A stretch of DNA of 64,000 nt from sequence record OL956808.1; one strand, given 5' to 3'. The position numbers were made by a program, and so were the translations under genes. Source of the DNA: Escherichia phage vB_EcoM-S1P5QW. The notes under the pieces were generated by a model. It saw nothing but the letters and a program-made list of their open reading frames with translations. It did not search any database and was not told where the DNA came from. This document shows, in pieces, positions 2,041 to 60,907 of the stretch. Numbering within the stretch: the first letter of the stretch is position 1; the number at the start of each line of letters is the position of its first letter.

Positions 2041-2334
2041 CTATTTAATGAATACTTTAGATGATGCCTGAGCCACAGTATCACCGCATGATATTGGATC
2101 AGCCATTTGAACAGCTTTCTTTCCAGTGACATATACCTTAGAAGTTCTAGGTTGTGTCACTCCGCCATGTGTTTCATATGGCTTTTTAATTTCTGTATGT
2201 TCTGTAATTGGATCACCTGCTACGAGAACAGCAATTCCTCCAGTGAATACTTTACTTTGTGTAGCATTCACAACTGTTGGAGGCCATGCTTCATGGCCGG
2301 CAGTAACACACTTATCATAACTTAATCCTGACAT
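2041..2334 (-). CDS. 5.4: PAAR-repeat baseplate spike tip protein
   Basis: 97 aa, Gly/Thr-rich PAAR-like sequence, located between gp5/5.1 and gp6 as in T4. Confidence 0.85.
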
Positions 2335-4591: not shown

Positions 4592-5165
4592 AAGATTTCT
4601 CCATTATACGTATAAGGTCGTTCATAAATGAATTGATGTCTGATTTTGCTATTATTTTTATTTGACGAAGTTTTTCATTTTCAAGAACAGCAGCTTCATA
4701 CGTATCGACCGCGGCAAGTGCTCCTTCATATTGAGGATATTTTCTAGCTTTATCACCTTTGTCATACCAAACATATGGATTATCATCATATGATACTAAA
4801 TTATAAAATTTTTCACCATTTTCATTCACATGATATACTATTTGGTCTCCACCTACGTTTTTGTATTTTTGTATAGATGCTTGATAAGCAGCTTCTTGCG
4901 AAGTAATCCATCCATAATACGGATCATAATTATCATTACACATCAATAAAACCCAATACAACTGCGGATTTCCATATATAGCATTTGCTAATTCTTCCGG
5001 GCGTGGTGAACCTTTAATATAATAAGTACGTAAGCGGTATCCCGCAAGAGCACGTTTGAAATAGTCTTTATAGTTTCTAAAAATATCTGTCATAGGAATA
5101 GTCGGCGCGTTTTTATTCACCGTTTTGGCCGCATATTCAATCGGATCAAAAAATGTAAAGAGCAT
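4575..5165 (-). CDS. 53: baseplate wedge subunit gp53
   Basis: 196 aa, immediately upstream of gp5 on same strand; divergent from gene 4. Confidence 0.8.
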   Translation of the reverse strand: MLFTFFDPIEYAAKTVNKNAPTIPMTDIFRNYKDYFKRALAGYRLRTYYIKGSPRPEELANAIYGNPQLYWVLLMCNDNYDPYYGWITSQEAAYQASIQKYKNVGGDQIVYHVNENGEKFYNLVSYDDNPYVWYDKGDKARKYPQYEGALAAVDTYEAAVLENEKLRQIKIIAKSDINSFMNDLIRIMEKSYGNDK

Positions 5166-7889: not shown

Positions 7890-8586
<697 letters not shown>

Positions 8587-8598
8587 TTTCACAAAGTT

Positions 8599-8630
8599 GT
8601 TTACACAGGGTTTTAGTAGTGATACTATTA
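8599..8630 (+). promoter_or_regulatory. T4-type early promoter (GTTTAC -35, extended -10)
   Basis: TTTCACAAAGTTGTTTACA...GTGATACTAT read in sequence upstream of the internal-protein gene. Confidence 0.55.
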
Positions 8631-8662
8631 CCCTATCAAAACAAAACCAAATGGAAATCAAA

Positions 8663-8896
8663 ATGAAAACTTTCAAAGAGTTTATCGCTGAATCTTCTGA
8701 TGTAAAAGTTGAGTTTATTTACACCGGCAAGAAAGATAAAATGGGTGAAATGCCTCATGGAGTTCTTCGTGATGCATTAGATAATTTCGGTCAACTCGCC
8801 GCAGAAGATTACGGTGATAAAATTGTTGTTACTGGTCCTGCTGCAGTTATTGAAAAATGGGCAGCAGAAAATAAATCAATTTTTCGTAAAAAATAA
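8663..8896 (+). CDS. internal (capsid-packaged) protein with capsid targeting sequence
   Basis: N-terminus MKTFKEFIAE matches T4 internal-protein CTS (MKTYQEFIAE); gene flanked by near-identical promoter/stem-loop repeats. Confidence 0.7.
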   Translation: MKTFKEFIAESSDVKVEFIYTGKKDKMGEMPHGVLRDALDNFGQLAAEDYGDKIVVTGPAAVIEKWAAENKSIFRKK

Positions 8897-8927
8897 GTTT
8901 ACTTTTAGATAGGGTAGTGATACTATT
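8897..8927 (+). promoter_or_regulatory. T4-type early promoter with stem-loop
   Basis: GTTTAC...AGGGTAGTGATACTATTACCCT (inverted repeat around -10). Confidence 0.5.
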
Positions 8928-8954
8928 ACCCTATCAACTACCGAGGAGAATAAA

Positions 8955-9140
8955 ATGAAACGTTGTGAATTAATTCGAAATGTTGCTATTGCAATTTCTG
9001 CTTCTGCTTTTAGTTTTTCAATGTTTGTTGGATTTATATGCGGATTATTGACTACAGCAGAAAATGTTTTTTCACTTGTAGCAGCATTTTTAATTGGTTT
9101 AATTGCTATCGTTATGGATAAAATTTCTAAAGGTGAATAG
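8955..9140 (+). CDS. small hydrophobic membrane protein
   Basis: 61 aa, two hydrophobic segments, RBS GAGGAGA. Confidence 0.5.
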   Translation: MKRCELIRNVAIAISASAFSFSMFVGFICGLLTTAENVFSLVAAFLIGLIAIVMDKISKGE

Positions 9141-10156: not shown

Positions 10157-10807
10157 ATGTCTCGTCGTGAGACGCTCAGTTCTTTATTAGGGACTGATAT
10201 GCATTTTTATCTTTATAAAATAACAAATAAAATTAATAATAAAATTTATATTGGTGTGCATTCTACCGAAAATTTAGATGATGGATATATGGGTTCTGGT
10301 AAATTATTAAAAAGAGCCCAAGATAAATATGGTATAGAAAATTTTTCTAAAGAAATATTAGAGTATTTTGATGATAAAGAATCTATGCTTGAAGCCGAGA
10401 AAAATATTGTCACAGAAGAGTTTTTAAATAGACCAGATGTGTATAATTTAAAACTTGGAGGTGAAGGTGGATGGGATCATATAAATAATTATCCTATGAC
10501 AGATCAGCAACGCGAATTAATTTCATTGGGTGTTAAAAAGGCACATTCTAACGGAAAATTAAAAGGATGGTCTTCAAATGGATTAATGAAAAATGGCTTT
10601 GCTGGTAAAACTCATTCTCAAGAAGCTAAACGTAAAATAGCAAAAGCAAACGAAGCAAAAGTTTCTGCGAATGAAAGAAAAAGAAGAATAGAAATTTCTA
10701 AATTATATGATTTTTCTAAGCGGGGTGAATTATCTAAATATGCTAAGCATATTGGCGTAAGTCATACTCAAGCAAAAAGAATTCTAAATCAAATTAACAA
10801 TATATAA
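10157..10807 (+). mobile_element. segB: GIY-YIG homing endonuclease (SegB-like) inserted in tRNA cluster
   Basis: 216-aa ORF with GIY-YIG motifs (FYLYKI...KIYIGVHS) and repeated NUMOD3-like motifs; lies between tRNA-Gly and tRNA-Ser. Confidence 0.8.
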
Positions 10808-11505: not shown

Positions 11506-11820
11506 AACAAGAAGCCGGGTCGCTACCGGTAAGTCGTCGGACTGATGTTCCCTGGGTAAGGACTGGCATTAACAAATCTTTACGATCGGTTAATGCCCCC
11601 TTACATCACAGCAGAAACGGCGCACCGAATTATCGATTCGAGGAAATATCTTTGCCGTAAGCCGAGTAGCGTTTTTGACGGAACGTTCGGATATGGTCGA
11701 GATATGGCCTTTTAAAATATTAAGTAGCGTCAACTGCTTAATAACCGGGTTCGAATCCCGGCGTTTCGTACAAACACTTGCCTTAGCAGGTGGAACCCCG
11801 ACAAGGTTGCCGCAAGGCTT
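11506..11820 (+). ncRNA. candidate small stable RNA region (T4 species 1/2, RNA C/D-like)
   Basis: ~300 nt without convincing ORF, relatively GC-rich, contains tRNA-like T-arm CCGGGTTCGAATCCCGG, ends at a hairpin terminator. Confidence 0.35.
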
Positions 11821-11848
11821 AGCCCCGACCGAAAGGTTGGGGCTTTTT
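11821..11848 (+). terminator. intrinsic terminator hairpin plus T-run
   Basis: GCCCCGACCGAAAGGTTGGGGC followed by TTTTT. Confidence 0.7.
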
Positions 11849-11850
11849 AG

Positions 11851-11858
11851 TATAAATA
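11851..11858 (+). promoter_or_regulatory. late promoter TATAAATA
   Basis: exact octamer 37 nt upstream of the 11895 ORF. Confidence 0.5.
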
Positions 11859-11894: not shown

Positions 11895-12368
11895 ATGAAA
11901 TCATATGCTCAATTTTTAAATGAAGCGGTGTTAAATGAAGCATCTAGCACCGAAATTCAAGCCGTTGCAAAAGCTGCCATTGCCGCGGGTAAATATTCCT
12001 ATAAAGATGCTTCTGATGAGTCACGATTCCAATTTGCTCGCGATATGAAAGCGGAAGGATTTACAGGGAATGCAGTTAGTATGGCCTGGAAAAGTCTAGT
12101 TGCTACTGGAGCTGCTTTTGCAAAGGCTTCGGGTAAACCTGCTCCTAAAGCAGATCCTAAAGTCACACAAGAGAAAAATATTGTTAAAGGAATTATCTCC
12201 AAATATGAAGCTATCCTTAAAGAGCTTTTAGTAATCAAAACTGAAGGCCAAAAACTGGCTCGTGCTTATAGTTTCAAAGATAACCCACATGCTCACTCTC
12301 TTGAGTATGTTGAAGACATCCAAAAAATTATTAAAGACCGCATTTGGTCTGCTAAACAAATCAAATAA
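11895..12368 (+). CDS. internal-protein-like protein (degenerate capsid targeting sequence)
   Basis: 157 aa, N-terminus MKSYAQFLNEA resembles CTS; Ala/Lys-rich. Confidence 0.55.
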   Translation: MKSYAQFLNEAVLNEASSTEIQAVAKAAIAAGKYSYKDASDESRFQFARDMKAEGFTGNAVSMAWKSLVATGAAFAKASGKPAPKADPKVTQEKNIVKGIISKYEAILKELLVIKTEGQKLARAYSFKDNPHAHSLEYVEDIQKIIKDRIWSAKQIK

Positions 12369-12375
12369 CATTCTT

Positions 12376-12403
12376 AGCCCCGACAGAAAGGTTGGGGCTT
12401 TTT
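12376..12403 (+). terminator. intrinsic terminator hairpin plus T-run
   Basis: AGCCCCGACAGAAAGGTTGGGGCT then TTTTT; near-duplicate of the 11821 hairpin. Confidence 0.7.
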
Positions 12404-12499
12404 GGCATCTAGGCTTTTCCGGGCCTCTCTAGGCATCATTTAGTTTATATCCTTTATAATATATTATCCTATCCTTTGATTTCCCCTCCCTGCCCTAGA

Positions 12500-12597
12500 A
12501 TTCCCTAAAACTTTTTAAAAATTTTTTCACAAAACTGTTTACATCCCTGTTCTTCCATGGTACTATATAACTATCAACTACTGATACAGAAAACAAC
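12500..12597 (+). repeat. promoter/stem-loop cassette (PeSL-like) copy
   Basis: ATTCCCTAAAA...TTTCACAAAACTGTTTACA...CTGTTCTTCCATGGTACTATA: ~85% identical to 54297-54386. Confidence 0.6.
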
Positions 12598-12873
12598 TTG
12601 GAGAACGAAATGGATAATTACGGCGAACTGTTCAACTTCTTTATGAAATGTGTTTCAGAAGATTTCGGTCGTACAGTGAATGATATTAAAGTTATCGGTC
12701 CTGATCATCCGATGTTTGAAACTTATGCGGTAATGGGCAATGAAGACGGTCAGTGGTATACTGTAAAGGTTGTGATTAACATGTTCACTGCTGAAAGTTA
12801 TGTTAAACTGTCTTCTAAAGTTTACCATGATAACGACGAAATCGCAGAAGAATATTTCAATAATATGAAATAA
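12598..12873 (+). CDS. hypothetical protein
   Basis: 91-aa ORF downstream of early promoter cassette. Confidence 0.5.
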   Translation: MENEMDNYGELFNFFMKCVSEDFGRTVNDIKVIGPDHPMFETYAVMGNEDGQWYTVKVVINMFTAESYVKLSSKVYHDNDEIAEEYFNNMK

Positions 12874-12903
12874 GTTTACATAGGCTCATGATTGAGATAT
12901 TAT
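12874..12903 (+). promoter_or_regulatory. early promoter with stem-loop
   Basis: GTTTACA then inverted repeat TAGGCTCAT...ATGAGCCTA spanning the -10. Confidence 0.5.
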
Positions 12904-12929
12904 GAGCCTATAACTTTGAGGAGAACATA

Positions 12930-13328
12930 ATGAATATTAAAGATAAAGAAATGCGAGAGTTATATAATTCATTAACACCCGAACAACAAAAATCTGTTAA
13001 AGAATTAGAGAAAGCTCTTAGTTTAAGCTTGACAAAAACTGATTGGGTCGCCGTGTATGAAGAAAAAATGAGATCGGAAAATGAAGCTGTCGAGAGAAAT
13101 GAATGGATTGTAGACACCAAGATTGGTGATGATGGATGTTCTGTTGAGGTGTCAGCTGTAGTTAAAGGTACTCATGGCGAAGAATCATGGGGTTGGCATA
13201 ATGAGGCAAACAAATATATTGTTCTCTCAACGTCAAAAACTTATGGTCAAAAGGTTCCTGTATCCAAAGCTATTATTAAGCAAGCTCAATGGGAAGCCAA
13301 TGAAATCTGCCTCGCAAAAATGAAATAA
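12930..13328 (+). CDS. hypothetical protein
   Basis: 132 aa, RBS GAGGAGAA. Confidence 0.55.
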   Translation: MNIKDKEMRELYNSLTPEQQKSVKELEKALSLSLTKTDWVAVYEEKMRSENEAVERNEWIVDTKIGDDGCSVEVSAVVKGTHGEESWGWHNEANKYIVLSTSKTYGQKVPVSKAIIKQAQWEANEICLAKMK

Positions 13329-13331
13329 CAT

Positions 13332-13361
13332 GTTTACAAACTCTCGGGAGTAGAGTATAAT
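13332..13361 (+). promoter_or_regulatory. early promoter with stem-loop
   Basis: GTTTACA...GGGAGTAGAGTATAATACTCCC (TATAAT inside hairpin loop). Confidence 0.5.
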
Positions 13362-13405
13362 ACTCCCACGGATTATAAAACCCTTAATTAACTAAAGGAA
13401 ATGCT

Positions 13406-13999
13406 ATGAACATGCTGAAGAAAATTGTTGAGTTTATTCGCACTAAACTTGGTTCTGCTATGGCTAAAAATCTATCTGTTGAAGAGCAGTATACTGCCGC
13501 AGCAGCAAAACTACTTGATAAAATTAAAGATCTAAAAACTGCTTCTGTTAAATCTATTAATGAAGAAAAGCGTATTCGTGAACTTATTGTCGAAAAGAAT
13601 CGACAGGCCGAATCAAAAGAGCGTGAAATTCGCAAGCTTCTTTCGGAAGGTCAAGATGTAACAATGCATGCTAAACTTGGTTTACTATATCGTCGAACAG
13701 CTGAGCAGTTGACTACTAAAGCTGATGGTTATGCTGAAATGCGAATTGAAATCGCCAAGAAAGTAGTTGAGTTAGATGATGCTCGCCAAGAACTTGCAGT
13801 TAAATTGGAATATATCCGTGAAACTCGCGCCGCGAATGCCCTCGGAATTAGTACTGCTGATGATGTAGTTGAAATTGCAGCACTGACTAAGGTTGATATT
13901 GAAGATACTCTTGCTCGAGTTGAAACCTTTAATGGCAATATTTCTGGGGTTGAAACTACCTCTGCCGATGTTCAGGAATACATTAATTCTCTGAAATAA
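13406..13999 (+). CDS. coiled-coil protein
   Basis: 197 aa, heptad-rich throughout; a PspA/IM30 resemblance was considered but is not convincing. Confidence 0.5.
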
Positions 14000-15848: not shown

Positions 15849-16285
15849 AAACATTATCAGCTGGTATTATCTTTATGACAGAAGATAAAGATTTATTCAT
15901 GGGACGGGTTACTGGTTCTCGTAAGCCTGGAATGATGGCACATCGCTGGGATATTCCAAAAGGCCGTGTAGAAAATTCTGATTTGAGCGCACTAGATGCA
16001 GCACGAAGAGAATGCTTAGAAGAGACCGGTTTTAGCAATTATAATCCAGACCTTCTAGAAGACCTAGGTGTATTTAAATATTCTAGTAATAAAGACTTAC
16101 AGCTGTTTTATTATACGATTCCAGTAGAGCATGAGATGTTTAGAAATTGCCATTGCGAGTCTTATTTTGAAAATAAAGATGGTGTTATGATTCCAGAGAT
16201 GGATGCTTTTGCTCTTATTCCTCGTACTCAGTGGCAATATGTGATGGGTCCTTCACTTTACCGAATAATGAACAGCCTCTTTTAA
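15845..16285 (+). CDS. nudE: Nudix hydrolase NudE
   Basis: Nudix box around DAARRECLEETGF; directly upstream of lysozyme e as in T4; start at ATG 15845 after AGGAAA. Confidence 0.8.
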   Translation: MKTLSAGIIFMTEDKDLFMGRVTGSRKPGMMAHRWDIPKGRVENSDLSALDAARRECLEETGFSNYNPDLLEDLGVFKYSSNKDLQLFYYTIPVEHEMFRNCHCESYFENKDGVMIPEMDAFALIPRTQWQYVMGPSLYRIMNSLF

Positions 16286-16816
<531 letters not shown>

Positions 16817-16910
16817 AGTTATTTACTTTCTCCTAGAATTGTGATAGTATATTCACAGTTACTTGAAGAGATAAATTATTAATTAAAATATTTACATTTA
16901 AAGGATACAC

Positions 16911-17384
16911 ATGAAAACATATCAAGAATTTATTACTGAAGCAGCTATTAATTCTCAAATTATTGCTGAATCTTTTACTGATCTTTTGAAATTTAAAAAA
17001 GGACAGAAAATCACTGCTGTACTGGATGATGGTACAGAAGTTGAGATGGATGTACAGGGATATAATTATGCAGTAGATGGAAAACTGTATAATAAATCTC
17101 ATGCTAAATTTGATTCATTTGACGACTTTGTTAATACAGTTGAAGATGAAAAAACTCGTCGATCCATTGCAACAGGTGATGCTAAGGTTCTTATGGCACA
17201 TGGTCATGAACGTATTCGCGCTAAACAGAATAAAATGGGTGAAGATAATTTTGCATTAGTTGGTTATCAATCTGGTAAACAAACTTATGGCTATCAACGT
17301 ACTGCTACCATGTATAACAAAAATGGTAAAATTGCCTTTGTGAATAGTAAAGGTTCTATTCAGTACGTTAAATCGTTCAAATAA
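16911..17384 (+). CDS. internal protein with capsid targeting sequence
   Basis: N-terminus MKTYQEFITEA matches T4 internal-protein CTS; 157 aa. Confidence 0.7.
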   Translation: MKTYQEFITEAAINSQIIAESFTDLLKFKKGQKITAVLDDGTEVEMDVQGYNYAVDGKLYNKSHAKFDSFDDFVNTVEDEKTRRSIATGDAKVLMAHGHERIRAKQNKMGEDNFALVGYQSGKQTYGYQRTATMYNKNGKIAFVNSKGSIQYVKSFK

Positions 17385-19252: not shown

Positions 19253-19530
19253 TGGCTCAATTAAGCGCAGGGTTTGGTTATGAGTATTATACTGCCCCTC
19301 GTCGTGTATCTGCCGCTCCTAAGAAAATTCAAAGTCTTGATGACTTCCAGGAAGTAGTCCGTAAAGCTTTCCAGGACTATGCACGTTATCTTAAAGAAGA
19401 TTCACAGGACTGTCTTGAAGAAGATGAAATTGCTTACTATGAGCAACGTCTTGAACAGCTTAAAAACCTACATGAGGTCCGTGCAGAAGTTTCAAAGTCT
19501 ATGAATAAATTGATTAGATTTAAAGAATAA
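19252..19530 (+). CDS. hypothetical protein
   Basis: 92 aa from ATG 19252. Confidence 0.5.
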
Positions 19531-19532
19531 CT

Positions 19533-19562
19533 GTTTACTTTTCCTCTTGACTGTGGTATAAT
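19533..19562 (+). promoter_or_regulatory. early promoter (GTTTAC ... TGGTATAAT)
   Basis: CTGTTTACTTTTCCTCTTGACTGTGGTATAAT upstream of regB. Confidence 0.6.
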
Positions 19563-19589
19563 TTTTCTATCAGTTAAGAGGAGAATAAC

Positions 19590-20051
19590 ATGACTATCAA
19601 TACAGAAGTTTTTATCCGTCGAAATAAGCTTCGTCGTCACTTTGAGTCGGAGTTTCGTCAAATTAACAATGAGATTCGTGAGGCATCAAAAGCAGCAGGG
19701 GTCTCATCGTTTCATCTAAAATATTCTCAGCATCTTCTTGATCGTGCAATTCAACGGGAGATTGATGAGACATATGTTTTTGAATTATTCCATAAAATAA
19801 AAGACCATGTTTTAGAAGTTAATGAATTCCTGAGTATGCCTCCGCGTCCTGACATTGACGAGGATTTTATTGATGGGGTTGAATATCGTCCTGGACGTTT
19901 AGAAATCACAGATGGAAATCTTTGGCTTGGATTTACGGTTTGTAAGCCTAATGAGAAGTTCAAAAACCCGTCACTTCAATGCAGGATGGCAATTATCAAC
20001 AATCGTCGTTTACCAGGAAAGGCTTCTAAAGCAGTAATTAAAACTCAATGA
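19590..20051 (+). CDS. regB: site-specific RNA endonuclease RegB
   Basis: 153 aa, N-terminus MTINTEVFIRRNKLRRHF as recalled for T4 RegB; RBS GAGGAGA. Confidence 0.85.
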   Translation: MTINTEVFIRRNKLRRHFESEFRQINNEIREASKAAGVSSFHLKYSQHLLDRAIQREIDETYVFELFHKIKDHVLEVNEFLSMPPRPDIDEDFIDGVEYRPGRLEITDGNLWLGFTVCKPNEKFKNPSLQCRMAIINNRRLPGKASKAVIKTQ

Positions 20052-23695: not shown

Positions 23696-23719
23696 AGTCT
23701 CCTTCGGGAGACTTTTTTC
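23696..23719 (+). terminator. intrinsic terminator hairpin plus T-run
   Basis: AGTCTCCTTCGGGAGACT followed by TTTTTT. Confidence 0.7.
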
Positions 23720-23728
23720 ATTTTACCG

Positions 23729-23759
23729 GTTTACTTTCCGTTTGAGCTGTGATACTATA
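23729..23759 (+). promoter_or_regulatory. early promoter cassette
   Basis: GGTTTAC...GTGATACTATACAACTATC, same -10 module as other cassettes. Confidence 0.55.
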
Positions 23760-23786
23760 CAACTATCGGATAAAGAGGAGAACATC

Positions 23787-23975
23787 ATGAAAATTGAAGC
23801 ACTCAATCAAGAAGGAAATATCTACGTCATCATTAATGGTGATTTTTTCGTCGACATGGATGAAGTTACTAGTGAAGAACTTGTAGAATTTCTTAAGAAA
23901 CGTTATAATATGTGTGATGAAGTTGCAACTCACATGGCATGTGCAATATTCTCTCTTTCATATGTGGTGGAATAA
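23787..23975 (+). CDS. small protein
   Basis: 62 aa from ATG 23787 after RBS AAAGAGGAGAA. Confidence 0.5.
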
Positions 23976-24375: not shown

Positions 24376-24538
24376 AAAGCAGATGTTTTTAATGAAACTA
24401 ATTGAAGAATATGCTAATGCAGTTTCTGACTATGAATGTTCTTCTCGGGAAAGAGGTACAGCTTTCGCCAAAGAAGAAATGAAAATCATGGTTGATGCTC
24501 ACACAAAGCTTCAGAATTTTATTGAAAACGTCATTTAA
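24365..24538 (+). CDS. small helical protein (paralog family)
   Basis: 57-aa ORF missed by the 60-aa cutoff; MKTEKQMFLMKLIEEYANAV resembles neighbours. Confidence 0.4.
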   Translation: MKTEKQMFLMKLIEEYANAVSDYECSSRERGTAFAKEEMKIMVDAHTKLQNFIENVI

Positions 24539-24540
24539 TG

Positions 24541-24570
24541 GTTTACAAGTTGGCAAGGTTATGGTATAGT
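24541..24570 (+). promoter_or_regulatory. early promoter (GTTTAC ... TGGTATAGT)
   Basis: read in sequence directly after upstream stop. Confidence 0.5.
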
Positions 24571-24702
24571 AATCTTGTCAACTTCCAAGGAGAAGAGAAT
24601 GAAAGTTTTGTTTGTTGTGTATGTGATGATTCAATATAATTACCCAATGTTTACTTATAATTTGGTAAACAACATTATTGATATGATTCAGAGGAGTATG
24701 TA

Positions 24703-27434: not shown

Positions 27435-27437
27435 TAG

Positions 27438-27461
27438 GGAGCCTTCGGGCTCCCTTTTTTA
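27438..27461 (+). terminator. intrinsic terminator hairpin plus T-run
   Basis: GGGAGCCTTCGGGCTCCC followed by TTTTTT. Confidence 0.7.
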
Positions 27462-27464
27462 TTT

Positions 27465-27548
27465 CAAAAATTTTTCACAAAGTTGTTTACAAGCATAAAG
27501 CTTTATGGTACTATACAACTATCAACTGATACGGATTTGGAGAATAAA
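27465..27548 (+). repeat. promoter/stem-loop cassette (PeSL-like) copy
   Basis: TTTTTCACAAAGTTGTTTACA...TATGGTACTATACAACTATCAACTG shared with cassettes at 12500, 28920, 54297. Confidence 0.6.
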
Positions 27549-28517
27549 ATGAAAACTGTAACTATCAATAAGGGTATCTACTTCGGTAAAGAAATCTCTG
27601 GAACTTTTGAGCTCTTAGGCGAATGGTTCCCAGATAATGCTCCGGTGGATGCACAAGGAGATGGTAAAGTTTTTGTTGAAATTGACGGTAAGCGTCGCGG
27701 TGTTTGGGTTTACAAATCAGACATTTCATATGATGGTGTAAAAGTTGAAGAAGTTAAAGAATCATATGAAGATATGAAAACCCGCATTAATAAAAGATTT
27801 AATGTTATGGGAATGATGACGAATGGTATTATTAACGGAAACATTCGTTCATTAATTATCTCTGGTGCGGCGGGTATTGGTAAAACGTATTCTTTAGATA
27901 AAGCTTTAAATAAAGCAAATGATATTGGATACATTGAATATAAAAGCATTAACGGTAAAATCTCCGGTATCGGTCTTTATGAACAACTTTGGAATAATCG
28001 TGAAGAGAATTCTGTCCTTTTGATTGATGATGTGGATGTTTTCTCTGATATGGACATTCTTAATCTTCTAAAAGCTGCTCTGGACACTGGAGAGACCCGT
28101 AAAGTCTGCTGGAGCACTGCATCTTCTTACTTAGAAGAAAAAGGCATTGAGCGTGAGTTTGAATTTAAAGGAACGATTGTTTTTATCACAAACGTTGACA
28201 TTGACCGCGAATTAGACCGTGGTACTAAACTTGCTCCACATTTACAAGCATTAGTGTCCCGCTCAGTTTATTTGGATTTGGGTGTTCACACTAATGAAGA
28301 AATTATGGTCAGGGTTGAAGATGTTATTCTTTCAACTGACATGATGCAAAAGCGCGGTCTTTCTGATGAAGAAACTTATAAAGCATTATCATGGATGAAA
28401 GTCAATGTTAATCGTTTACGCAATGTTTCACTGCGTACTGCTCTTTATCTTGCTGACTTTATTATGACCGACAAAAACGGTTGGGAAGAAATTGCTGAGG
28501 TTACTCTTCTGAAATAA
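27549..28517 (+). CDS. AAA+ ATPase
   Basis: 322 aa from ATG 27549; Walker A GAAGIGKT, Walker B VLLIDDVD. Confidence 0.6.
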   Translation: MKTVTINKGIYFGKEISGTFELLGEWFPDNAPVDAQGDGKVFVEIDGKRRGVWVYKSDISYDGVKVEEVKESYEDMKTRINKRFNVMGMMTNGIINGNIRSLIISGAAGIGKTYSLDKALNKANDIGYIEYKSINGKISGIGLYEQLWNNREENSVLLIDDVDVFSDMDILNLLKAALDTGETRKVCWSTASSYLEEKGIEREFEFKGTIVFITNVDIDRELDRGTKLAPHLQALVSRSVYLDLGVHTNEEIMVRVEDVILSTDMMQKRGLSDEETYKALSWMKVNVNRLRNVSLRTALYLADFIMTDKNGWEEIAEVTLLK

Positions 28518-28606: not shown

Positions 28607-28921
28607 ATGGAGGTAGTGATGTTATACTCAAAGGCTCGTGAAATTTATGAAACTAAAATTAAAGACGCGGTTCATCAGTTCGCAACGACAATGCGTTGGA
28701 CAAATGATTGGGAGTATTCAAAAAATCATAAGAAGCCCTTGGTGACAAGAAAGGCTCATATGTTAGTGTTAATAGACCGTGAGCAGATTAAAGCCCGAGA
28801 AGCCCTCCAGAATCATAAAAAGGCTGCTTTTGAATGGTTTATGGATAACACTGCTCCTGAGACTAAGAAAGCAGTGAGCGCTTGGTTCAGTGGAAAAAAT
28901 TGTGAAAGAAGTTTCTTTTAG
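28607..28921 (+). CDS. hypothetical protein
   Basis: 104-aa ORF, RBS GGAGG. Confidence 0.45.
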   Translation: MEVVMLYSKAREIYETKIKDAVHQFATTMRWTNDWEYSKNHKKPLVTRKAHMLVLIDREQIKAREALQNHKKAAFEWFMDNTAPETKKAVSAWFSGKNCERSFF

Positions 28922-28981
28922 TTGTTTACAAGACCGTTCCTCTGTGGTACTATACAACTATCAACTACGGAGGAACACAAA
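28920..28981 (+). repeat. promoter/stem-loop cassette (PeSL-like) copy
   Basis: GTTTACA...GGTACTATACAACTATCAACTACGGAGGAACACAAAATG; last 41 nt identical to 54350-54390. Confidence 0.6.
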
Positions 28982-29509
28982 ATGAACGCTAAAGATATTT
29001 TCAACCTGGTAAATTACAACGATGGTAAATTTAAATCTGAAGCACAAAGCAAGTTCTTTAATGACATCTCAATCGGAGGTGAAATCACGGTTGATGGAGG
29101 ACAAATTTACAAATCCCGTTGGAATTGGATCGTTATTATCGATGAGATTGGTATTGTAGAAATTTACAAGAATACGAATAAAAATCGTACATTACACTGG
29201 TCTCGTGATACTAATGAACAGTACAAAAAGGATAAAGCATCTAAATTATCTCGTGTAACTCAAGAAGATATTGAGTTCATCAAGAAAGATATTTTGATGT
29301 ATGATAACTTAATTGCTGAAGAGCAAGCTGTTATTGATAAATTTGACGAGATTAAAGCTTCTCGTGAAATTCCTGATTTTATGAAAGAATCAGTAAATGA
29401 ACGATACACTCTCATTTCAGAGCGTATTGAAACTTACAAAAAGCAAAGAGCTGAACGCCAGAATACTCTTCGGAAGTTTGAAGAACGGTTAAAGACGGTA
29501 CTCGCATAA
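28982..29509 (+). CDS. hypothetical protein
   Basis: 175 aa from ATG 28982 directly downstream of promoter cassette; C-terminal coiled coil. Confidence 0.55.
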   Translation: MNAKDIFNLVNYNDGKFKSEAQSKFFNDISIGGEITVDGGQIYKSRWNWIVIIDEIGIVEIYKNTNKNRTLHWSRDTNEQYKKDKASKLSRVTQEDIEFIKKDILMYDNLIAEEQAVIDKFDEIKASREIPDFMKESVNERYTLISERIETYKKQRAERQNTLRKFEERLKTVLA

Positions 29510-30869: not shown

Positions 30870-31889
30870 ATGAAAACTCGTTCTCAAATTGAAGATATGG
30901 TTCGTAATGCCAGCTATACTCGTGATGTTATGACATTTTTGTGCCAAAATAATTTAGACCCTGATAAAGTTAATCGTGATATTCACTTTAAATATATGAA
31001 TAGCAGTGAATGGTTACGTCATTTTAGTAAAGCGGGGTATATTACACAAATGACTGCTCGTGAGCAGCTCACCGATTTCTGTAAAACTATTGATTATAAA
31101 AATCCTCTATTTGTTCAAGGTGTTGGTCAGAGTAAGGTCGATTTATCATCTGGATTTTTCAATCCAAATCATTATCGTATTGAATGGAGATTTATTGCTC
31201 TATTCCGTAAACAATTAAAGCAAATTTTGTCGACGGCTAGTCGATTAAAAGGTTCTGATATTAACTTAAAGAACCTGAAATTTGATGGTTATACTCTTCA
31301 GATGGAAGTAAGACCATTAAAAGAAAATAATAGAACTGCACGAATTAGCTTTAAACCTAATACAAAAAATTCTCTTTCAATTTGTGAATGTCTTAAATCA
31401 CAGCTGACAGAAGCATTTAAGTATATGGATGTTGTTGCTGCTGTTCAATCTAAGATTTCGCAGCATTTCGAACGATTTAAATTAGATACGACAACATATG
31501 AACTTGATATGATCGTTTCATTTAAATACGATTTTTTGAGAAAGGACGAAGTCCCGCAAGAGAAAAAGCAGGAAGTGCAAGATAACTTAAATTTATCTAA
31601 TTACTCATCAAACGATCCTAAATTTTGGATGTATAGTTCAGGTAATAAAGATGCATGGAAATTCAATAAAGTGAATTTTCTTCCTATTGAAAATCCGAGT
31701 CTTAAACCTGTTGAAAAATGGCACGCGGATGCGATTGAGAAGTCCCTTAAGGCAGTAGATGATGAACTCGTTAAAGCGACCAATGAAGTGTTAGAAGCTG
31801 AAAAGATGCTAGAAAAAGCACAAGAAAAAGTCAAAAATCTCACGAAGCAACGTTCTAAACTGAACAATGCACTAAATGCACTGAACTAG
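30870..31889 (+). CDS. tandem-family protein 2
   Basis: 339 aa; shares central W/R-rich motif and C-terminal coiled coil with neighbours. Confidence 0.55.
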   Translation: MKTRSQIEDMVRNASYTRDVMTFLCQNNLDPDKVNRDIHFKYMNSSEWLRHFSKAGYITQMTAREQLTDFCKTIDYKNPLFVQGVGQSKVDLSSGFFNPNHYRIEWRFIALFRKQLKQILSTASRLKGSDINLKNLKFDGYTLQMEVRPLKENNRTARISFKPNTKNSLSICECLKSQLTEAFKYMDVVAAVQSKISQHFERFKLDTTTYELDMIVSFKYDFLRKDEVPQEKKQEVQDNLNLSNYSSNDPKFWMYSSGNKDAWKFNKVNFLPIENPSLKPVEKWHADAIEKSLKAVDDELVKATNEVLEAEKMLEKAQEKVKNLTKQRSKLNNALNALN

Positions 31890-31919
31890 TTTACTTTGCC
31901 ACAAGGATGTGGTATAATG
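31889..31919 (+). promoter_or_regulatory. early promoter (GTTTAC ... TGGTATAAT)
   Basis: TAGTTTACTTTGCCACAAGGATGTGGTATAAT at the gene junction. Confidence 0.55.
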
Positions 31920-31946
31920 TTCTTACTTTCTACTGAGGAGATTAAT

Positions 31947-32948
31947 ATGACTCGTAACGAATATATCAAATCATTCAATAGCGTTATTGATGATAAAGCT
32001 ATACCGATGTTTGGTCAAAATATCGTTCTTTCTATTATCAATCAATGGCTCAATAGTGTTGATGCAAGTATTGTTTCTTCTACTAAATTTATTCATGAAA
32101 TTCGTAAAATTTCTAGCCGTGTAGATAAAGATGTTATCAAGAAAACCTTTAAAGAGTCTCGTCTTCTTTCATATTTGGTTAATCGGGATATTCTTGGTAA
32201 TTTTGGGAAAGAAATTAAACGAACTAAAGATGTAGTAGGATATAATTGGTTCGGTGATGTTAATTCTTATCATCTTAATAATAAAGAAGACCCTGAGAAT
32301 ATTTTTACTCGTCGTTGGATTAGTAATTTCAGACTTTTCAAAGGACAGATTCTAAAATCAGCTTCTAAATTATGTTATGGCGATTATCGTCAAATTCATC
32401 CTTTGGCTTCTGATATGATTATCATAAAAGAATATGAGCTTGATAAAAATAAAGTAGCTATTTTTGTGAATTATGGATTTTTTACACCAGAAACTAACCA
32501 AAAGAACATTAATAAATTTTTCTCAATTGCTAGCACTATAACTCGTCAATTAGAGACCGCATTACTTTGTATGGAAACAGTAGAAAATATTCATACATAT
32601 CCTTTTAAGAATATATGCGGTTGGGAAGGATATAAAATTGTAGTTAGTCTTCGTGAAGTGAAATGTACTTATTCACTTACTAGTAAAGAAATTTACCAAC
32701 AAAAATGTGATGAAATTGTGAATACTCCTAAAGAAGAAACTACCCTTGAGGAACTAATGGAATGTCTTGATGATTCGCCTGAACCTGTAGAAATTCGTCC
32801 AGAAGTTATTGCACTAGAAAAAGCTTATAAAGAAGTTCTAGAAATTTCTAATAAAGCGCAGAAAGAATATGAGCAGGCTAAAAGGATTTGGGAAGAATCT
32901 GTTAATCGTCTTGATCGTTTGGAACAAGCTTTACAGTTAATTAAGTAA
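31947..32948 (+). CDS. tandem-family protein 3
   Basis: 333 aa from ATG 31947 (RBS GAGGAGA). Confidence 0.55.
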   Translation: MTRNEYIKSFNSVIDDKAIPMFGQNIVLSIINQWLNSVDASIVSSTKFIHEIRKISSRVDKDVIKKTFKESRLLSYLVNRDILGNFGKEIKRTKDVVGYNWFGDVNSYHLNNKEDPENIFTRRWISNFRLFKGQILKSASKLCYGDYRQIHPLASDMIIIKEYELDKNKVAIFVNYGFFTPETNQKNINKFFSIASTITRQLETALLCMETVENIHTYPFKNICGWEGYKIVVSLREVKCTYSLTSKEIYQQKCDEIVNTPKEETTLEELMECLDDSPEPVEIRPEVIALEKAYKEVLEISNKAQKEYEQAKRIWEESVNRLDRLEQALQLIK

Positions 32949-39134: not shown

Positions 39135-39208
39135 TCTCACATTCTGTATATTACCATTCTAAGCTATCGTTCCCTTCTTATCATTCCCTAAAATAATTTT
39201 CACAAAGT

Positions 39209-39240
39209 TGTTTACAACAAGTTCAAACCGTGGTATTATT
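39209..39240 (+). promoter_or_regulatory. early promoter cassette
   Basis: TTTTCACAAAGTTGTTTACA...GTGGTATTATT. Confidence 0.55.
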
Positions 39241-39269
39241 AACATATGAATTACCTTTGAGGAATTGAT

Positions 39270-39446
39270 ATGGTTGATAAAGAGATTAAAATTGACCAGT
39301 ACTATCGTGTTAACGGACATATCGTTATTGTTACAGCAGTCGATGATTTAGATGTTCATTATACTGTGATTAAATGGAACAAACGTATGATTTGTGATCG
39401 TGCTGTATTTAGTTCAGTTGCTAAGGAAATTAAACTCCATGGGTAA
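39270..39446 (+). CDS. hypothetical small protein
   Basis: 58-aa ORF below the track cutoff, directly downstream of promoter, RBS GAGGAA. Confidence 0.4.
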   Translation: MVDKEIKIDQYYRVNGHIVIVTAVDDLDVHYTVIKWNKRMICDRAVFSSVAKEIKLHG

Positions 39447-54224: not shown

Positions 54225-54247
54225 AGGGACCTCCGGGTCCCTTTTTC
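54225..54247 (+). terminator. intrinsic terminator hairpin plus T-run
   Basis: AGGGACCTCCGGGTCCCT followed by TTTTT. Confidence 0.7.
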
Positions 54248-54296
54248 ATACAAGTAATATAAATCTATACTTATGAAAAACAGATGATTCTGGACC

Positions 54297-54386
54297 TTTA
54301 GAATTCCCTAAAAAAATTTCACAAAACTGTTTACAAGACTGTTCTTCCATGGTACTATACAACTATCAACTACGGAGGAACACAAA
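54297..54386 (+). repeat. promoter/stem-loop cassette (PeSL-like) copy
   Basis: AGAATTCCCTAAAAAAATTTCACAAAACTGTTTACAAGACTGTTCTTCCATGGTACTATACAACTATCAACTACGGAGGAACAC; near-duplicate of 12500-12590 and 28920-28981. Confidence 0.65.
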
Positions 54387-54638
54387 ATGAAAAATATTCA
54401 AACTAATTTTATTCAAAATTTAAAAGTTGTTAACGCAGAAAAAGCTAATAAACTCTTTAAAGTTAAAGAATTTGAAAATGAAGGTAACACTTACGGTATT
54501 ATAGAACAAAATGGAATGGTTACTGGATTAGAAATTTATAATGGTAAAGGAAAATTTCAGTCACAGCCAATTTCTGTTATGGGTGTAAGAAAAGGAATTA
54601 AAACTGAAGATGCTTTAAAGTTATTTGTTAAGTTTTAA
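54387..54638 (+). CDS. hypothetical protein
   Basis: 83 aa downstream of promoter cassette. Confidence 0.55.
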   Translation: MKNIQTNFIQNLKVVNAEKANKLFKVKEFENEGNTYGIIEQNGMVTGLEIYNGKGKFQSQPISVMGVRKGIKTEDALKLFVKF

Positions 54639-58625: not shown

Positions 58626-60053
58626 GTGGTAGAAATTATTCTTTCTCATCTTATATTTGATCAAGCTTATTTTTCAAAAGTTTGGCCATATATGGATTCA
58701 GAATATTTTGAAAGTGGTCCAGCTAAAAATACATTCAAATTAATTAAATCTCATGTCAATGAGTATCATAGCGTTCCATCTATTAATGCGTTAAATGTTG
58801 CATTAGAAAATAGTTCATTTACTGAAACAGAATATTCTGGTGTAAAAACACTTATTTCAAAACTGGCTGATTCTCCAGAAGACCACAGCTGGTTAGTAAA
58901 AGAAACAGAAAAATATGTTCAGCAAAGGGCGATGTTTAATGCTACGTCTAAAATAATCGAAATTCAAACTAATGCTGAGCTTCCTCCGGAAAAACGAAAT
59001 AAGAAAATGCCGGATGTTGGTGCTATTCCTGACATCATGCGGCAAGCATTATCTATTTCATTTGATAGTTACGTTGGTCATGATTGGATGGATGACTATG
59101 AAGCACGTTGGCTATCTTATATGAATAAAGCTCGTAAAGTTCCATTTAAACTCAGAATTCTAAACAAAATTACTAAAGGCGGAGCTGAGACTGGAACACT
59201 GAACGTTTTAATGGCTGGCGTTAACGTTGGTAAATCATTAGGTCTGTGTTCATTAGCAGCAGATTATTTACAGCTCGGACATAATGTTCTTTACATTTCC
59301 ATGGAAATGGCAGAAGAAGTCTGTGCTAAGCGTATTGACGCTAACATGCTTGATGTTTCTCTTGATGACATTGATGATGGGCATATTTCTTACGCTGAGT
59401 ATAAAGGAAAAATGGAAAAATGGCGTGAGAAATCTACTCTCGGTCGTTTAATCGTTAAACAGTATCCTACTGGTGGAGCAGACGCTAACACATTCAGGTC
59501 TCTCTTGAATGAATTGAAGCTCAAGAAGAATTTTGTTCCAACAATCATTATTGTCGACTATCTAGGTATTTGTAAATCTTGCCGCATCAGAGTTTATTCA
59601 GAAAATAGTTACACAACTGTTAAAGCTATTGCAGAGGAATTGCGTGCTCTGGCTGTTGAAACCGAAACTGTTCTTTGGACTGCAGCACAGGTTGGTAAAC
59701 AAGCTTGGGACTCTTCCGATGTTAACATGAGCGATATTGCAGAATCTGCTGGTCTTCCAGCAACAGCTGATTTTATGCTTGCGGTCATTGAAACCGAGGA
59801 GCTAGCAGCTGCTGAACAACAACTCATTAAGCAAATCAAATCACGATATGGCGATAAGAACAAATGGAATAAGTTTTTGATGGGTGTTCAAAAAGGAAAT
59901 CAGAAATGGGTAGAAATTGAACAAGATTCTACTCCAACCGAAGTGAGTGAAGTAGCAGGTTCACAACAGATTCAGGCTGAACAGAATCGCTATCAAAGAA
60001 ACGAATCAGCTCGAGCTCAGTTAGATGCTTTGGCAAATGAATTAAAATTTTAG
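58626..60053 (+). CDS. 41: replicative DNA helicase gp41 (DnaB-like)
   Basis: 475 aa, GTG start; Walker A GVNVGKS; N-terminus MVEIILSHLIFDQAYF as recalled for T4 gp41. Confidence 0.95.
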   Translation: MVEIILSHLIFDQAYFSKVWPYMDSEYFESGPAKNTFKLIKSHVNEYHSVPSINALNVALENSSFTETEYSGVKTLISKLADSPEDHSWLVKETEKYVQQRAMFNATSKIIEIQTNAELPPEKRNKKMPDVGAIPDIMRQALSISFDSYVGHDWMDDYEARWLSYMNKARKVPFKLRILNKITKGGAETGTLNVLMAGVNVGKSLGLCSLAADYLQLGHNVLYISMEMAEEVCAKRIDANMLDVSLDDIDDGHISYAEYKGKMEKWREKSTLGRLIVKQYPTGGADANTFRSLLNELKLKKNFVPTIIIVDYLGICKSCRIRVYSENSYTTVKAIAEELRALAVETETVLWTAAQVGKQAWDSSDVNMSDIAESAGLPATADFMLAVIETEELAAAEQQLIKQIKSRYGDKNKWNKFLMGVQKGNQKWVEIEQDSTPTEVSEVAGSQQIQAEQNRYQRNESARAQLDALANELKF

Positions 60054-60082
60054 TTTACAGGCTGACAAGACTATGGTATAGT
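60054..60082 (+). promoter_or_regulatory. early promoter with stem-loop
   Basis: GTTTACAGGCTGACAAGACTATGGTATAGTAGTCTTGT (inverted repeat around -10). Confidence 0.55.
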
Positions 60083-60111
60083 AGTCTTGTTGGTTAAATG
60101 AGGAGATTGTT

Positions 60112-60294
60112 ATGGAATTGGTAAAGGTAGTTTTTATGGGGTGGTTTAAGAATGAAAGCATGTTTACTAAAGAAACCACAATGATGAAAGATGACGTTCA
60201 ATGGGCTACTACTCAATATGCTGAAGTTAATAAAGCATTAGTTAAAGCTTTCATTGATGACAAGAAAGTATGTGAAGTAGATTGCCGAGGATAA
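60112..60294 (+). CDS. dmd: Dmd (discriminator of mRNA degradation; antitoxin of RnlA/LsoA)
   Basis: 60 aa; sequence recalled as T4 Dmd (gene 61.5); adjacent to gene 41; RBS GAGGAGA. Confidence 0.75.
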   Translation: MELVKVVFMGWFKNESMFTKETTMMKDDVQWATTQYAEVNKALVKAFIDDKKVCEVDCRG

Positions 60295-60295: not shown

Positions 60296-60553
60296 ATGCA
60301 TATTGTTTTATTTAAACCTACTCCGTATAACGTCAGGAAAAATACTCAATTCAAAGCACTTATTGCAGATACGTGGGAATTGGTGCTAGATATTCCAGCA
60401 GAAGAAAGTCCTCCATTTGGTCGAGTGGAATTTATTAAGTTTGTTGTACGTCCTACGAAGAGGCAGATTCGTCAGTGTAAAAGGCATTTTCGTAAGATCG
60501 TTAAGCTAGAGAAACAGTTTGTAACATGTGATTATGCAGAAGTTTTAAAATAG
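60296..60553 (+). CDS. hypothetical protein
   Basis: 85 aa, basic. Confidence 0.5.
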   Translation: MHIVLFKPTPYNVRKNTQFKALIADTWELVLDIPAEESPPFGRVEFIKFVVRPTKRQIRQCKRHFRKIVKLEKQFVTCDYAEVLK

Positions 60554-60555
60554 CT

Positions 60556-60585
60556 GTTTACTTTTGTTGGAAATTGAGATACTAT
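60556..60585 (+). promoter_or_regulatory. early promoter
   Basis: GTTTAC...GAGATACTATAT upstream of sp. Confidence 0.5.
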
Positions 60586-60613
60586 ATAAACATAAACTAC
60601 TGAGGAGATTATC

Positions 60614-60907
60614 ATGAAAAAATTTATTTTTGCTACAATTTTTACTTTGGCTTCTTGTGCTGCTCAGCCTGCTATGGCAGGTTATGATAAAGATTTGTGT
60701 GAATGGTCTATGACTGCAGATCAGACTGAAGTTGAAACTCAAATTGAAGCGGATATTATGAATATCGTTGAGCGTGATCGTCCTGAAATGAAAGCTGAAG
60801 TACAAAAACAGCTTAAGTCTGGTGGTGTAATGCAGTATAATTATGTTCTGTATTGCGATAAAAACTTTAATAACAAAAATATCATCGCTGAAGTGGTAGG
60901 TGAATAA
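60614..60907 (+). CDS. sp: periplasmic protein Spackle (superinfection exclusion; lysozyme inhibitor)
   Basis: 97 aa with signal peptide MKKFIFATIFTLASCAAQPAMA; length and locus match T4 sp (61.3). Confidence 0.7.
   Translation: MKKFIFATIFTLASCAAQPAMAGYDKDLCEWSMTADQTEVETQIEADIMNIVERDRPEMKAEVQKQLKSGGVMQYNYVLYCDKNFNNKNIIAEVVGE

Follow-up and report, generated by a model that had tools for sequence, protein, structure and literature searches.

The recurrent elements in the early region of Escherichia phage vB_EcoM-S1P5QW are best read as immediate-early promoters of Tequatrovirus, built as compact junction cassettes of the PeSL (promoter-early stem-loop) type that would exchange genes by homologous recombination; we put the probability of this reading at about 0.85. 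The finding is real but already known, as PeSLs were defined in RB49 and phi1 with reporter assays and mini-circles (Arbiol 2010, PMC2839356), and a PeSL consensus, TTTACW-N17-TAYWAT, was given for PST and T4, a pair of T-even phages, together with the internal-protein locus as a case (Comeau 2014, PMC4122927). The only part that may add knowledge is a translational gate with an embedded early promoter at regB and nrdC.8.

The window, i.e. the whole 64,000-nt stretch that was analysed, is the early-gene region of a T4-like coliphage of the genus Tequatrovirus, and three stretches of it were 95–98% identical to hundreds of Tequatrovirus records, roughly 500–770 in number. The gene order on its + strand follows the minus strand of T4. 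It starts with 4, 2, 3, 1, 57A, 57B, an internal-protein gene, the tRNAs and e.8 to e, continues with internal proteins, regB, tk, the nrdC series, nrdD/G, 55, a-gt, 47, 46 and 45, and ends with 44, 62, regA, 43, imm, 42, uvsX, 41 and 61. Late baseplate genes occupy positions 1–5165 on the opposite strand. An Rfam search of the whole window returned tRNAs only.

A strict pattern taken from the T4 early consensus, TTTAC[AT]-N17-TA[CTG][ATG][AG]T, matched 19 times on the + strand of the 64-kb window and 0 times on the − strand (mean of 0.36 and maximum of 3 in shuffled sequences). Three matches are intragenic (35153, 39650 and 44637), and the remaining 16 are intergenic, each followed by a Shine-Dalgarno (SD) sequence and an ATG, 55–89 nt after the −35 element. 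A generic sigma-70 consensus scan of 20 kb did not discriminate (87 sites, with 77 ± 8 expected), so only the T4-specific pattern was informative. The 16 intergenic cassettes, referred to below by the positions of their −35 elements, and the genes that they border are as follows (z, stability of the fold relative to shuffled sequences).

Cassette 1, 8580..8665, + strand: junction of 57B and the internal-protein gene; −35 at 8600–8605, −10 at 8623–8628, ATG at 8663; hairpin enclosing the −10 (z −3.96).
Internal virion protein gene, 8663..8896, + strand: between cassettes 1 and 2; phrog_8111, E 3e-51.
Cassette 2, 8878..8957, + strand: internal-protein gene to trna.4-like gene; −35 at 8898, −10 at 8921, GGAG SD, ATG at 8955; 12-bp hairpin enclosing the −10 (z −3.82).
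Cassette 3, 12500..12612, + strand: upstream of e.8, the site on which the first-pass annotation centred; ATTCCCTAAAA box and TTTCACAAAACTG, then −35 at 12538 and −10 at 12561, CTATCAACTAC, GGAG SD, ATG at 12610; terminator-like hairpin ~130 nt upstream, within the repeat 12373–12408.
Cassette 4, 12864..12932, + strand: e.8 to the e.7 slot; stop codon abutting the −35 at 12875, GGAG SD, ATG at 12930; 13-bp hairpin around the −10 (z −5.97); left border of the e.7-slot swap.
132-aa gene in the e.7 slot, 12930..13328, + strand: between cassettes 4 and 5.
Cassette 5, 13322..13408, + strand: e.7 slot to e.6; −35 at 13333, TATAAT, ATG at 13406; hairpin around the −10 (z −2.44); right border of the e.7-slot swap.
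Cassette 6, 16811..16913, + strand: e to the Ip4-type internal-protein gene; −35 at 16822, ATG at 16911; hairpin around the −10 (z −2.65).
Cassette 7, 19523..19592, + strand: putative regB promoter; −35 at 19534, TATAAT at 19557, ATG at 19590; spacer UUCCUCUUGACUG pairing with SD region CAGUUAAGAGGAG (z −5.42).
Cassette 8, 23696..23789, + strand: rI.-1 to mobD.5-like gene; intrinsic terminator at 23696–23713, −35 at 23730, GGAG SD, ATG at 23787.
Cassette 9, 24531..24601, + strand: −35 at 24542, TATAGT, GGAG SD, ATG at 24599; 16-bp hairpin around the −10 (z −5.90); paralogue of cassette 15 (family D8).
Cassette 10, 27436..27551, + strand: nrdC.11 to nrdC.10; terminator at 27436–27455, TTTCACAAAGTTG, −35 at 27486, SD GGAGAATAAAA with the full RegB consensus, ATG at 27549.
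Cassette 11, 28905..28984, + strand: nrdC.9 to nrdC.8; −35 at 28925, ATG at 28982; spacer GUUCCUCUGUGGU pairing with ACUACGGAGGAAC at the SD (z −3.31); 42-nt exact repeat shared with cassette 14.
Cassette 12, 31879..31949, + strand: stop codon TAG overlapping the G of GTTTAC, −35 at 31890, TATAAT, GGAG SD, ATG at 31947; small hairpin in the spacer.
Cassette 13, 39183..39272, + strand: ATTCCCTAAAA box at 39183, TTTCACAAAGTTG, −35 at 39211, TATTAT, ATG at 39270.
Cassette 14, 54225..54389, + strand: gene 43 to the 83-aa ORF; terminator at 54225–54246, ATTCCCTAAAA at 54303, −35 at 54330, −10 at 54353, nrdC.8-type leader with SD, ATG at 54387; chimeric relative to T4, RB14 and PST.
83-aa accessory ORF, 54387..54638, + strand: directly behind cassette 14; absent from T4, RB14 and PST.
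Cassette 15, 60043..60114, + strand: gene 41 to dmd-like gene; stop codon overlapping the −35 at 60054, GGAG SD, ATG at 60112; 15-bp hairpin around the −10 (z −5.00).
Cassette 16, 60546..60616, + strand: −35 at 60557, TACTAT, GGAG SD, ATG at 60614; no hairpin.

The cassette unit is ~60–110 nt long. Its 5′ end is formed by the stop codon of the preceding gene or by an intrinsic terminator, and it contains, in this order, an A+T-rich UP-like tract, a GTTTAC(A/T) −35 and, after 17 nt of spacer, a TGn-extended −10 that reads TA(C/T)(T/A)AT, then a start region (A)CAACTATCAACTAC, a GGAG SD sequence and the ATG of the next gene. The −35/−10 spacer is 17 nt in all 16 intergenic copies, a G directly precedes TTTAC in 15, and TGn precedes the −10 in 13. 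The A+T content of the 29 nt upstream (−30 to −2) is 77%, compared with 65% window-wide, and the stop codon of the upstream gene lies no more than ~6 nt from the −35 or overlaps it in about 10 cassettes (manual count over the 16 sequences). The consensus of the 16 copies reads aaA..tGTTTACa, 12 unconserved positions, tgTGgTA.tATa..ccTATcaacTa...agga, and the conserved start region is CTATCAAC.

The early promoter component has been a textbook feature of T4 for decades. The published T4 early consensus comprises GTTTAC at −36 to −31, an A-rich upstream tract, 17-nt spacing, a GT/TG motif before −12, and further conserved positions beyond the −35 and −10 (PMC1524935, PMC2988021). The cassettes have GTTTAC, an A-rich tract at about −40 to −44, the GT/TG motif and TAnnnT, and in the related record SA21RB the homologous sites are annotated by similarity as T4 early promoters, several with an overlapping predicted hairpin. 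Judged from this consensus and the T4 literature, the cassettes are probably sigma-70 early promoters of the T4 type, which the host sigma-70 RNA polymerase would fire right after infection. By definition, transcription from T4 early promoters begins in the first minute, with a host polymerase that is either unmodified or modified by Alt.

The translation start signals point to a second layer of control. GGAG occurs in the SD of 12 of the 16 cassette genes and of 11 of the 98 other genes of the window (Fisher p 3e-7). The first-pass annotation had named GGAGGAAC as a frequent ribosome-binding site, but this sequence is present in two cassettes only, and GGAG is the general feature. The T4 endoribonuclease RegB cuts GGAG in early SD sequences, with strong sites following GGAGRAYARAA, and the promoter of T4 regB itself is called a typical early one (PMC3014915). 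Cassettes 8898 and 27486 match all 11 positions of the RegB consensus, and several others match 9–10. The cassette would therefore combine an on signal, the strong early promoter, with a likely off signal, the RegB site, at which RegB would later cut and shut the early messages off.

The first-pass annotation had described a composite element in eight copies. The element was found at all eight sites, every one of which belongs to the 16 intergenic cassettes, so the sites held while the size of the family was underestimated by half. In a repeat search of the window, the listed cassettes fell into families D1 (seven copies) and D2 (five copies). The sequence GGTACTATACAACTATCAACT had four matches with at most one mismatch (0.00 expected), TTTCACAAARYTGTTTACA had five exact matches (0.36 expected for up to three mismatches), and the ATTCCCTAAAA box occurs exactly three times in the window, each time 27–38 nt upstream of a −35. 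An identical repeat shared by the copies at 28920 and 54350 was confirmed to run into the start codon (ATGAA), but its length is 42 nt (28945–28986 = 54350–54391) rather than the reported 41. For the copies at 12500 and 54297, the reported identity of ~85% over ~90 nt is somewhat high: it is ~93% over a 58-nt ungapped core (counted by eye from the alignment), 79% (68/86) over the gapped core, and ~71% over the full 98/90 nt. A scan of IMG/VR with a cassette 21-mer returned 20 stretches, found on a few T4-like contigs only. We considered and rejected an origin of the repeats by gene duplication, since the proteins encoded downstream of similar cassettes are unrelated.

Similarity among the copies could also result from selection for polymerase contacts. 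According to this explanation, the cassettes are strong promoters and nothing else, and gene swaps end at gene boundaries because only such products are viable. It draws on the extended consensus of T4 early promoters, which is known to reach beyond the −35 and −10. However, the identity also covers spacer and leader positions that are not read by the polymerase, as in the 42-nt repeat that continues into the ATG. We consider this explanation unlikely, and the comparison with related phages provides further evidence on both of its sides.

The homologous 63–70 kb of T4, TadeuszReichstein (TadR), RB14, PST and T2 were compared with the window by chaining local blastn alignments. Homology with these five relatives ends or resumes inside cassettes at five loci. 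The slot of the internal-protein gene (8683/8684 to 8897–8917), which as previously noted is flanked by cassettes (8600 and 8898), contains different internal-protein genes in T4, RB14, PST and T2. The e.7 slot (12873/12934 to 13321/13395) is occupied by three unrelated genes, one in the window, one in T4 and TadR, and one in RB14, PST and T2; the left crossover maps to cassette 12875, either in its SD–ATG interval or at its −35, and the right one to the −35 of cassette 13333. At the Ip4-type gene at 16911, homology spans the cassette and the first 31 nt of the gene, which encode its N-terminus (MKTYQEFI..) and presumably resemble the capsid-targeting sequence of internal proteins. At the nrdC.11/nrdC.10 junction, TadR has a 275-nt insertion with an extra gene inside cassette 27486, and T2 has, by annotation, an ADP-ribosylase-like gene between nrdC.11 and nrdC.10, with the alignment breaking at 27452. 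At the 43/imm.1 junction, the 83-aa ORF of the window is inserted right after CAACTAC of cassette 54330, with a cassette on the left side only. Invariance of the flanked genes among relatives would have spoken against the first-pass proposal; gene content varies at each of the ip, e.7, nrdC.11/nrdC.10 and 43/imm.1 slots.

The 43/imm.1 junction is the most informative of these loci. T4 carries the spacer AGACTGTTCTTCCATGG with an nrdC.10-type leader, RB14 an e.8-type spacer with an e.8-type leader, and PST an e.8-type spacer with an nrdC.10-type leader. The window and TadR combine the T4 spacer with an nrdC.8-type leader and the 83-aa ORF, and in T2 the same ORF follows an nrdC.8-type spacer and an nrdC.8-type leader. 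Six phages thus have five combinations of spacer, leader and gene between flanks that are 95–98% identical, and the other copies of the e.8-, nrdC.10- and nrdC.8-type modules lie 26–42 kb away. Only 30 Tequatrovirus records contained the 83-aa ORF, each time in the 43/imm.1 slot, and a homologue (54%) in Dhakavirus IME08 is located at another cassette-type junction, after rI.-1, where it is preceded by a terminator plus GTTTACA-N17-TACTAT-AGACCTATCAACTAATG. In the sequences compared, the 43/imm.1 chimeras are the clearest evidence for what appears to be exchange between dispersed cassette copies. That a single locus combines these modules differently from phage to phage argues against cassettes that are promoters only, as do homology tracts that end inside cassettes, between SD and ATG or at the −35.

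The distribution of breakpoints depends on the null that is chosen. Eleven of the 73 distinct breakpoint clusters fall into cassette intervals, which cover 4% of the sequence (binomial p 1.6e-4). When gene junctions were used as the null, with a junction counted as broken if a breakpoint lay within −110 to +40 of the start codon, there was no cassette excess in the five relatives (7 of 16 cassette junctions vs 35 of 95 other junctions; p 0.59), and an analysis of only those junctions whose spacers are ≥40 nt long also gave no excess (7/16 vs 14/34; p 1.0). These comparable frequencies favour the promoter-only explanation. Because there is no excess over other gene junctions, preferential recombination at cassettes is not claimed, and of the earlier description of the cassettes as a likely recombination substrate we retain the exchange points inside cassettes in five relatives and the chimeras at one junction, but not preferential use. 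By the alignments, the cassettes are demonstrably used for exchange and would represent one route to plasticity.

In our preferred reading, the cassettes exchange genes through their own homology. They share 40–90 nt of near-identical sequence in one orientation over 52 kb, so homologous recombination of the phage would be able to exchange DNA within them, yielding swapped accessory genes and chimeric promoters. A dedicated site-specific system, in which a recombinase or homing endonuclease targets the conserved box or the stem-loop, is a possibility that Arbiol et al. raised for the PeSL stem-loop (PMC2839356), and homing endonuclease genes are frequent in this region. However, the exchange points are scattered over the −35, the spacer, the position after CAACTAC and the SD–ATG interval, as expected of homology-driven exchange, and no recombinase gene linked to the cassettes was seen, which leaves such a system with hardly any probability.

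Stem-loops were analysed by folding the 51 nt from the −35 and comparing the stability with that of shuffled sequences. Nine cassettes (8600, 8898, 12875, 13333, 16822, 19534, 24542, 28925 and 60054) have an in-promoter hairpin with z values of −2.4 to −6.0. A stem-loop is present in 13 of the 16 cassettes when the small one in a spacer and three cassettes with an upstream terminator only are included. Canonical intrinsic terminators are located directly upstream of cassettes 23730, 27486 and 54330 and ~130 nt upstream of 12538. Folding gave no stem-loop for cassettes 39211 and 60557 and a marginal one only for 31890. The PeSL stem-loop subclasses, in which the stem-loop lies between or over the −35 and −10, upstream of them or shortly downstream, match those seen here (PMC2839356), and together with the T4 early consensus these positions bear out the first-pass reading of the elements as PeSL-like promoter/stem-loop units.

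The in-promoter hairpins are of two classes. Class A comprises seven cassettes, in which the −10 lies within the stem-loop and the SD remains unpaired. In class B, represented by 19534 (regB) and 28925 (nrdC.8), the promoter spacer provides the 5′ arm and the SD the 3′ arm; this pairing is weaker in 54330 and is formed over a longer loop in 12538. None of the in-promoter hairpins is followed by a U-tract, so a terminator function is not evident from the sequence. Class A stems in relatives retain pairing with different sequences; for example, the stem of the first ip cassette is ATAGGGTA/TACCCTAT in one phage and GATGAGGTA/TACCTCATC in another. The stem-loops would affect read-through RNA from upstream: hairpins of class A may attenuate or insulate, and in class B the promoter spacer would pair with the SD or AUG of the cassette's own gene, leaving only RNA that started at its own promoter, with the start site in the loop, translatable.

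Class B pairing at regB and nrdC.8 was examined further. The spacer/SD duplexes have energies of −21.6 kcal/mol for regB, −22.2 for nrdC.8, −16.7 for cassette 54330 and −11.0 for e.8, and the z values of the whole region are −5.4 for regB and −3.3 for nrdC.8. The −10 and the predicted start of regB lie in the loop of the UUCCUCUUGACUG/CAGUUAAGAGGAG hairpin, and the same applies to the class B hairpin of nrdC.8. There is no terminator between regB and the upstream gene, so transcripts that originate at upstream promoters should include the two arms of the hairpin. The regB RNA from its own promoter would lack the 5′ arm and be unstructured; when RNAs from the predicted own starts of regB and nrdC.8 were folded, they gave −1.2 and 0 kcal/mol, i.e. 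they were unstructured. As a positive control, the known hairpin of gene e with the late promoter in its loop was recovered at 16285–16327 (−16.2, z −4.5).

The regB arms in other lineages differ in sequence but retain complementarity. The Gelderlandvirus arms are UUCUCCUCUUUAUG/CAUAAAGAGGAGAA, those of a Mosig-like contig UCUCCUCUAGUUG/CAACUAGAGGAGA, and those of Dhaka-like contigs UCUCCUGUAAG/CUUACAGGAGA. Muldoonvirus has AAGACUCAUGAUA/UAUCAUGAGUCUU, with the start codon as the pairing partner, and in Gaprivervirus the region around the AUG is paired with the −10 region. In a MAFFT alignment of regB leaders the stems were out of register, which makes the counting of pairs misleading, and covariation was therefore assessed with a matrix of cognate and non-cognate spacer/TIR duplex energies from 10 lineages and permutation. 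The cognate duplex was the best in both its row and its column for 5 of the 10 lineages, and the mean was −14.6 kcal/mol for cognate and −8.8 kcal/mol for non-cognate pairs, with the observed cognate mean reached by 0 of 50,000 permutations (p < 2e-5). The arms of the nrdC.8 cassette also change in step. Applied to the 16 cassettes within the window, the cognate test yielded a p of 0.01. Four cassettes drive this result, which makes spacer/SD pairing the mark of a subclass and not a rule of the family.

Based on these results we propose, tentatively, that in a subset of cassettes (regB, nrdC.8, the 83-aa ORF and, weakly, e.8) the promoter spacer may serve as an anti-SD arm that closes the translation start in read-through RNA, so that protein would then be made only from the gene's own short-lived early promoter. 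The gate arms covary across at least five genera, and two further genera, Muldoonvirus and Gaprivervirus, pair the start codon and not the SD. The in-promoter hairpins could instead act as DNA and stimulate recombination or replication, either as cruciforms or as hairpins in single strands. At the DNA level an inverted repeat is symmetrical, and sequencing stops at PeSL stem-loops on single-stranded DNA were reported by Arbiol et al. (PMC2839356). However, the stems of regB and nrdC.8 contain G-U pairs, which favour structure in the sense-strand RNA and would be A-C mismatches on the other strand. In addition, the spacer consistently pairs with the region of translation initiation (SD or AUG) in different genera, which points to translation. 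An action of the hairpins as DNA is thus very unlikely.

If the gate exists, it would impose a hard time window on the synthesis of the RegB nuclease, and the hairpin would shield the GGAG of read-through RNA from RegB itself. It would also account for the joint transfer of spacer and leader as modules in recombination, and would be a tidy addition to the post-transcriptional control of T4. The design resembles the hairpins of T4 e, soc, 49 and I-TevI, in which the SD or AUG is paired in read-through RNA and an inner promoter yields a translatable shorter RNA. In that known type the embedded promoter is a late one and the gate delays expression, whereas at regB and nrdC.8 the embedded promoter is early and the 5′ arm is its own −35/−10 spacer, so the gate would confine translation to the short life of that promoter. 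A review of T4 translational control lists this hairpin design for e, soc, 49 and I-TevI; regB is not listed. A gate at regB or nrdC.8 was not described in the searchable literature, a scope outside which the older regB papers lie.

The cassettes as a whole agree with PeSLs in the order of their elements (stop codon or A+T-rich tract, sigma-70-like boxes 17 nt apart, stem-loop, SD, ATG), in their intergenic location within hyperplastic early regions, and in their position beside indels and replacements, 7 of the 16 being broken in at least one of the five relatives. Nothing essential differs; the PeSLs of RB49 and phi1 have TTGACA-type promoters and G/C-rich stems, and promoter and terminator activity of reporters as well as mini-circles between neighbouring copies were demonstrated there, whereas the cassettes of the window were analysed as sequence. 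With T4 early promoters (PMC2988021, PMC1524935) they share GTTTAC, the UP-like tract, the extended consensus and a site 5′ to early or novel ORFs. That literature treats transcription signals only, and the stem-loop, the leader and a role in recombination are outside its definition. Lambdoid morons (Hendrix et al. 2000, via PMC2839356) are similar in being single accessory genes with their own promoter and terminator, but they have no conserved repeated flanks and are thought to be inserted by illegitimate recombination, whereas the cassettes themselves supply the homology.

The cassettes illustrate how T4-like phages keep a fixed core genome and yet trade small accessory genes, among them internal proteins that counter host defences, neighbours of superinfection-exclusion genes and ADP-ribosyltransferase-like genes. 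An incoming gene would bring, or land behind, a ready-made strong early promoter and ribosome-binding site. For annotation, the cassettes predict early genes and swap-prone slots, and for engineering they may be used as natural landing pads.

Homing-endonuclease genes, which in the window are located at 10157–10807 and 47672–48559, constitute many of the other indels, both in the relatives and in the window.

A homologue of the 83-aa ORF (54387–54638, + strand), the accessory ORF behind cassette 14 at the 43/imm.1 junction, was found in Dhakavirus IME08, in which it occupies another slot, after rI.-1 (junction at 2395–2480 of locus L029). The IME08 homologue is preceded by a terminator and an early-promoter cassette whose start box is likewise CTATCAACTA. 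Members of the 83-aa ORF family are thus located at junctions of the cassette type in two genera, at a different locus in each.

A gene encoding 157 aa is flanked by terminator-like direct repeats of 36 nt each that are 92% identical:

11818–11853, first terminator-like direct repeat
11895–12368, ORF of the 157-aa gene
12373–12408, second terminator-like direct repeat

In T4, PST, and T2, the repeat occurs only once and the 157-aa gene is missing, a difference that looks like the result of a clean repeat-to-repeat deletion or insertion. The N-terminus of its product, MKSYAQFLNE, is similar to the starts of internal-protein genes. The corresponding motif, MK(T/S)(Y/F)x(E/Q)F(I/L)xE, forms the start of four genes in the window (at 8663, 11895, 16911, and 61535), two of which are annotated as internal virion proteins. 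The other two are the 157-aa ORF at 11895 and a 54-aa gp61.1-like ORF at 61535, and their products might also be targeted to the head.

Two homing-endonuclease genes were identified by PHROG matches:

10157–10807, homing-endonuclease gene interrupting the tRNA cluster
47672–48559, homing-endonuclease gene between rpbA and gene 45

The latter is missing in all five relatives compared (T4, TadeuszReichstein, RB14, PST, and T2). Directly after tRNA-Arg, ARAGORN predicted a 94-nt 'tRNA-Lys' (11678–11771), which is without Rfam support and is located where T4 encodes two small stable RNAs, rnaC and rnaD.

An exact 11-mer, ATTCCCTAAAA, is present at 12500, 39183, and 54303, 27–38 nt upstream of the −35 boxes of three cassettes, and lies outside the published promoter consensus, as far as the accessible literature describes it. 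Three more matches to the strict early-promoter pattern (35153, 39650, and 44637) are all located within coding sequence, with no SD or ATG downstream, and could represent either internal promoters or matches by chance.

In the regB leader (19534–19592), the SD is complementary to the spacer of regB's own early promoter, and the loop holds the −10 box and the predicted start. Complementary arms are also found in regB leaders from other lineages (loci L034–L052), and these arms covary in at least five genera. In Muldoonvirus and Gaprivervirus, the pairing partner is the start codon rather than the SD. The well-known hairpin of the T4 lysozyme gene (gene e) was also found (16285–16327; −16.2 kcal/mol, z −4.5), with the SD sequestered and the late promoter TATAAATA located within the loop.
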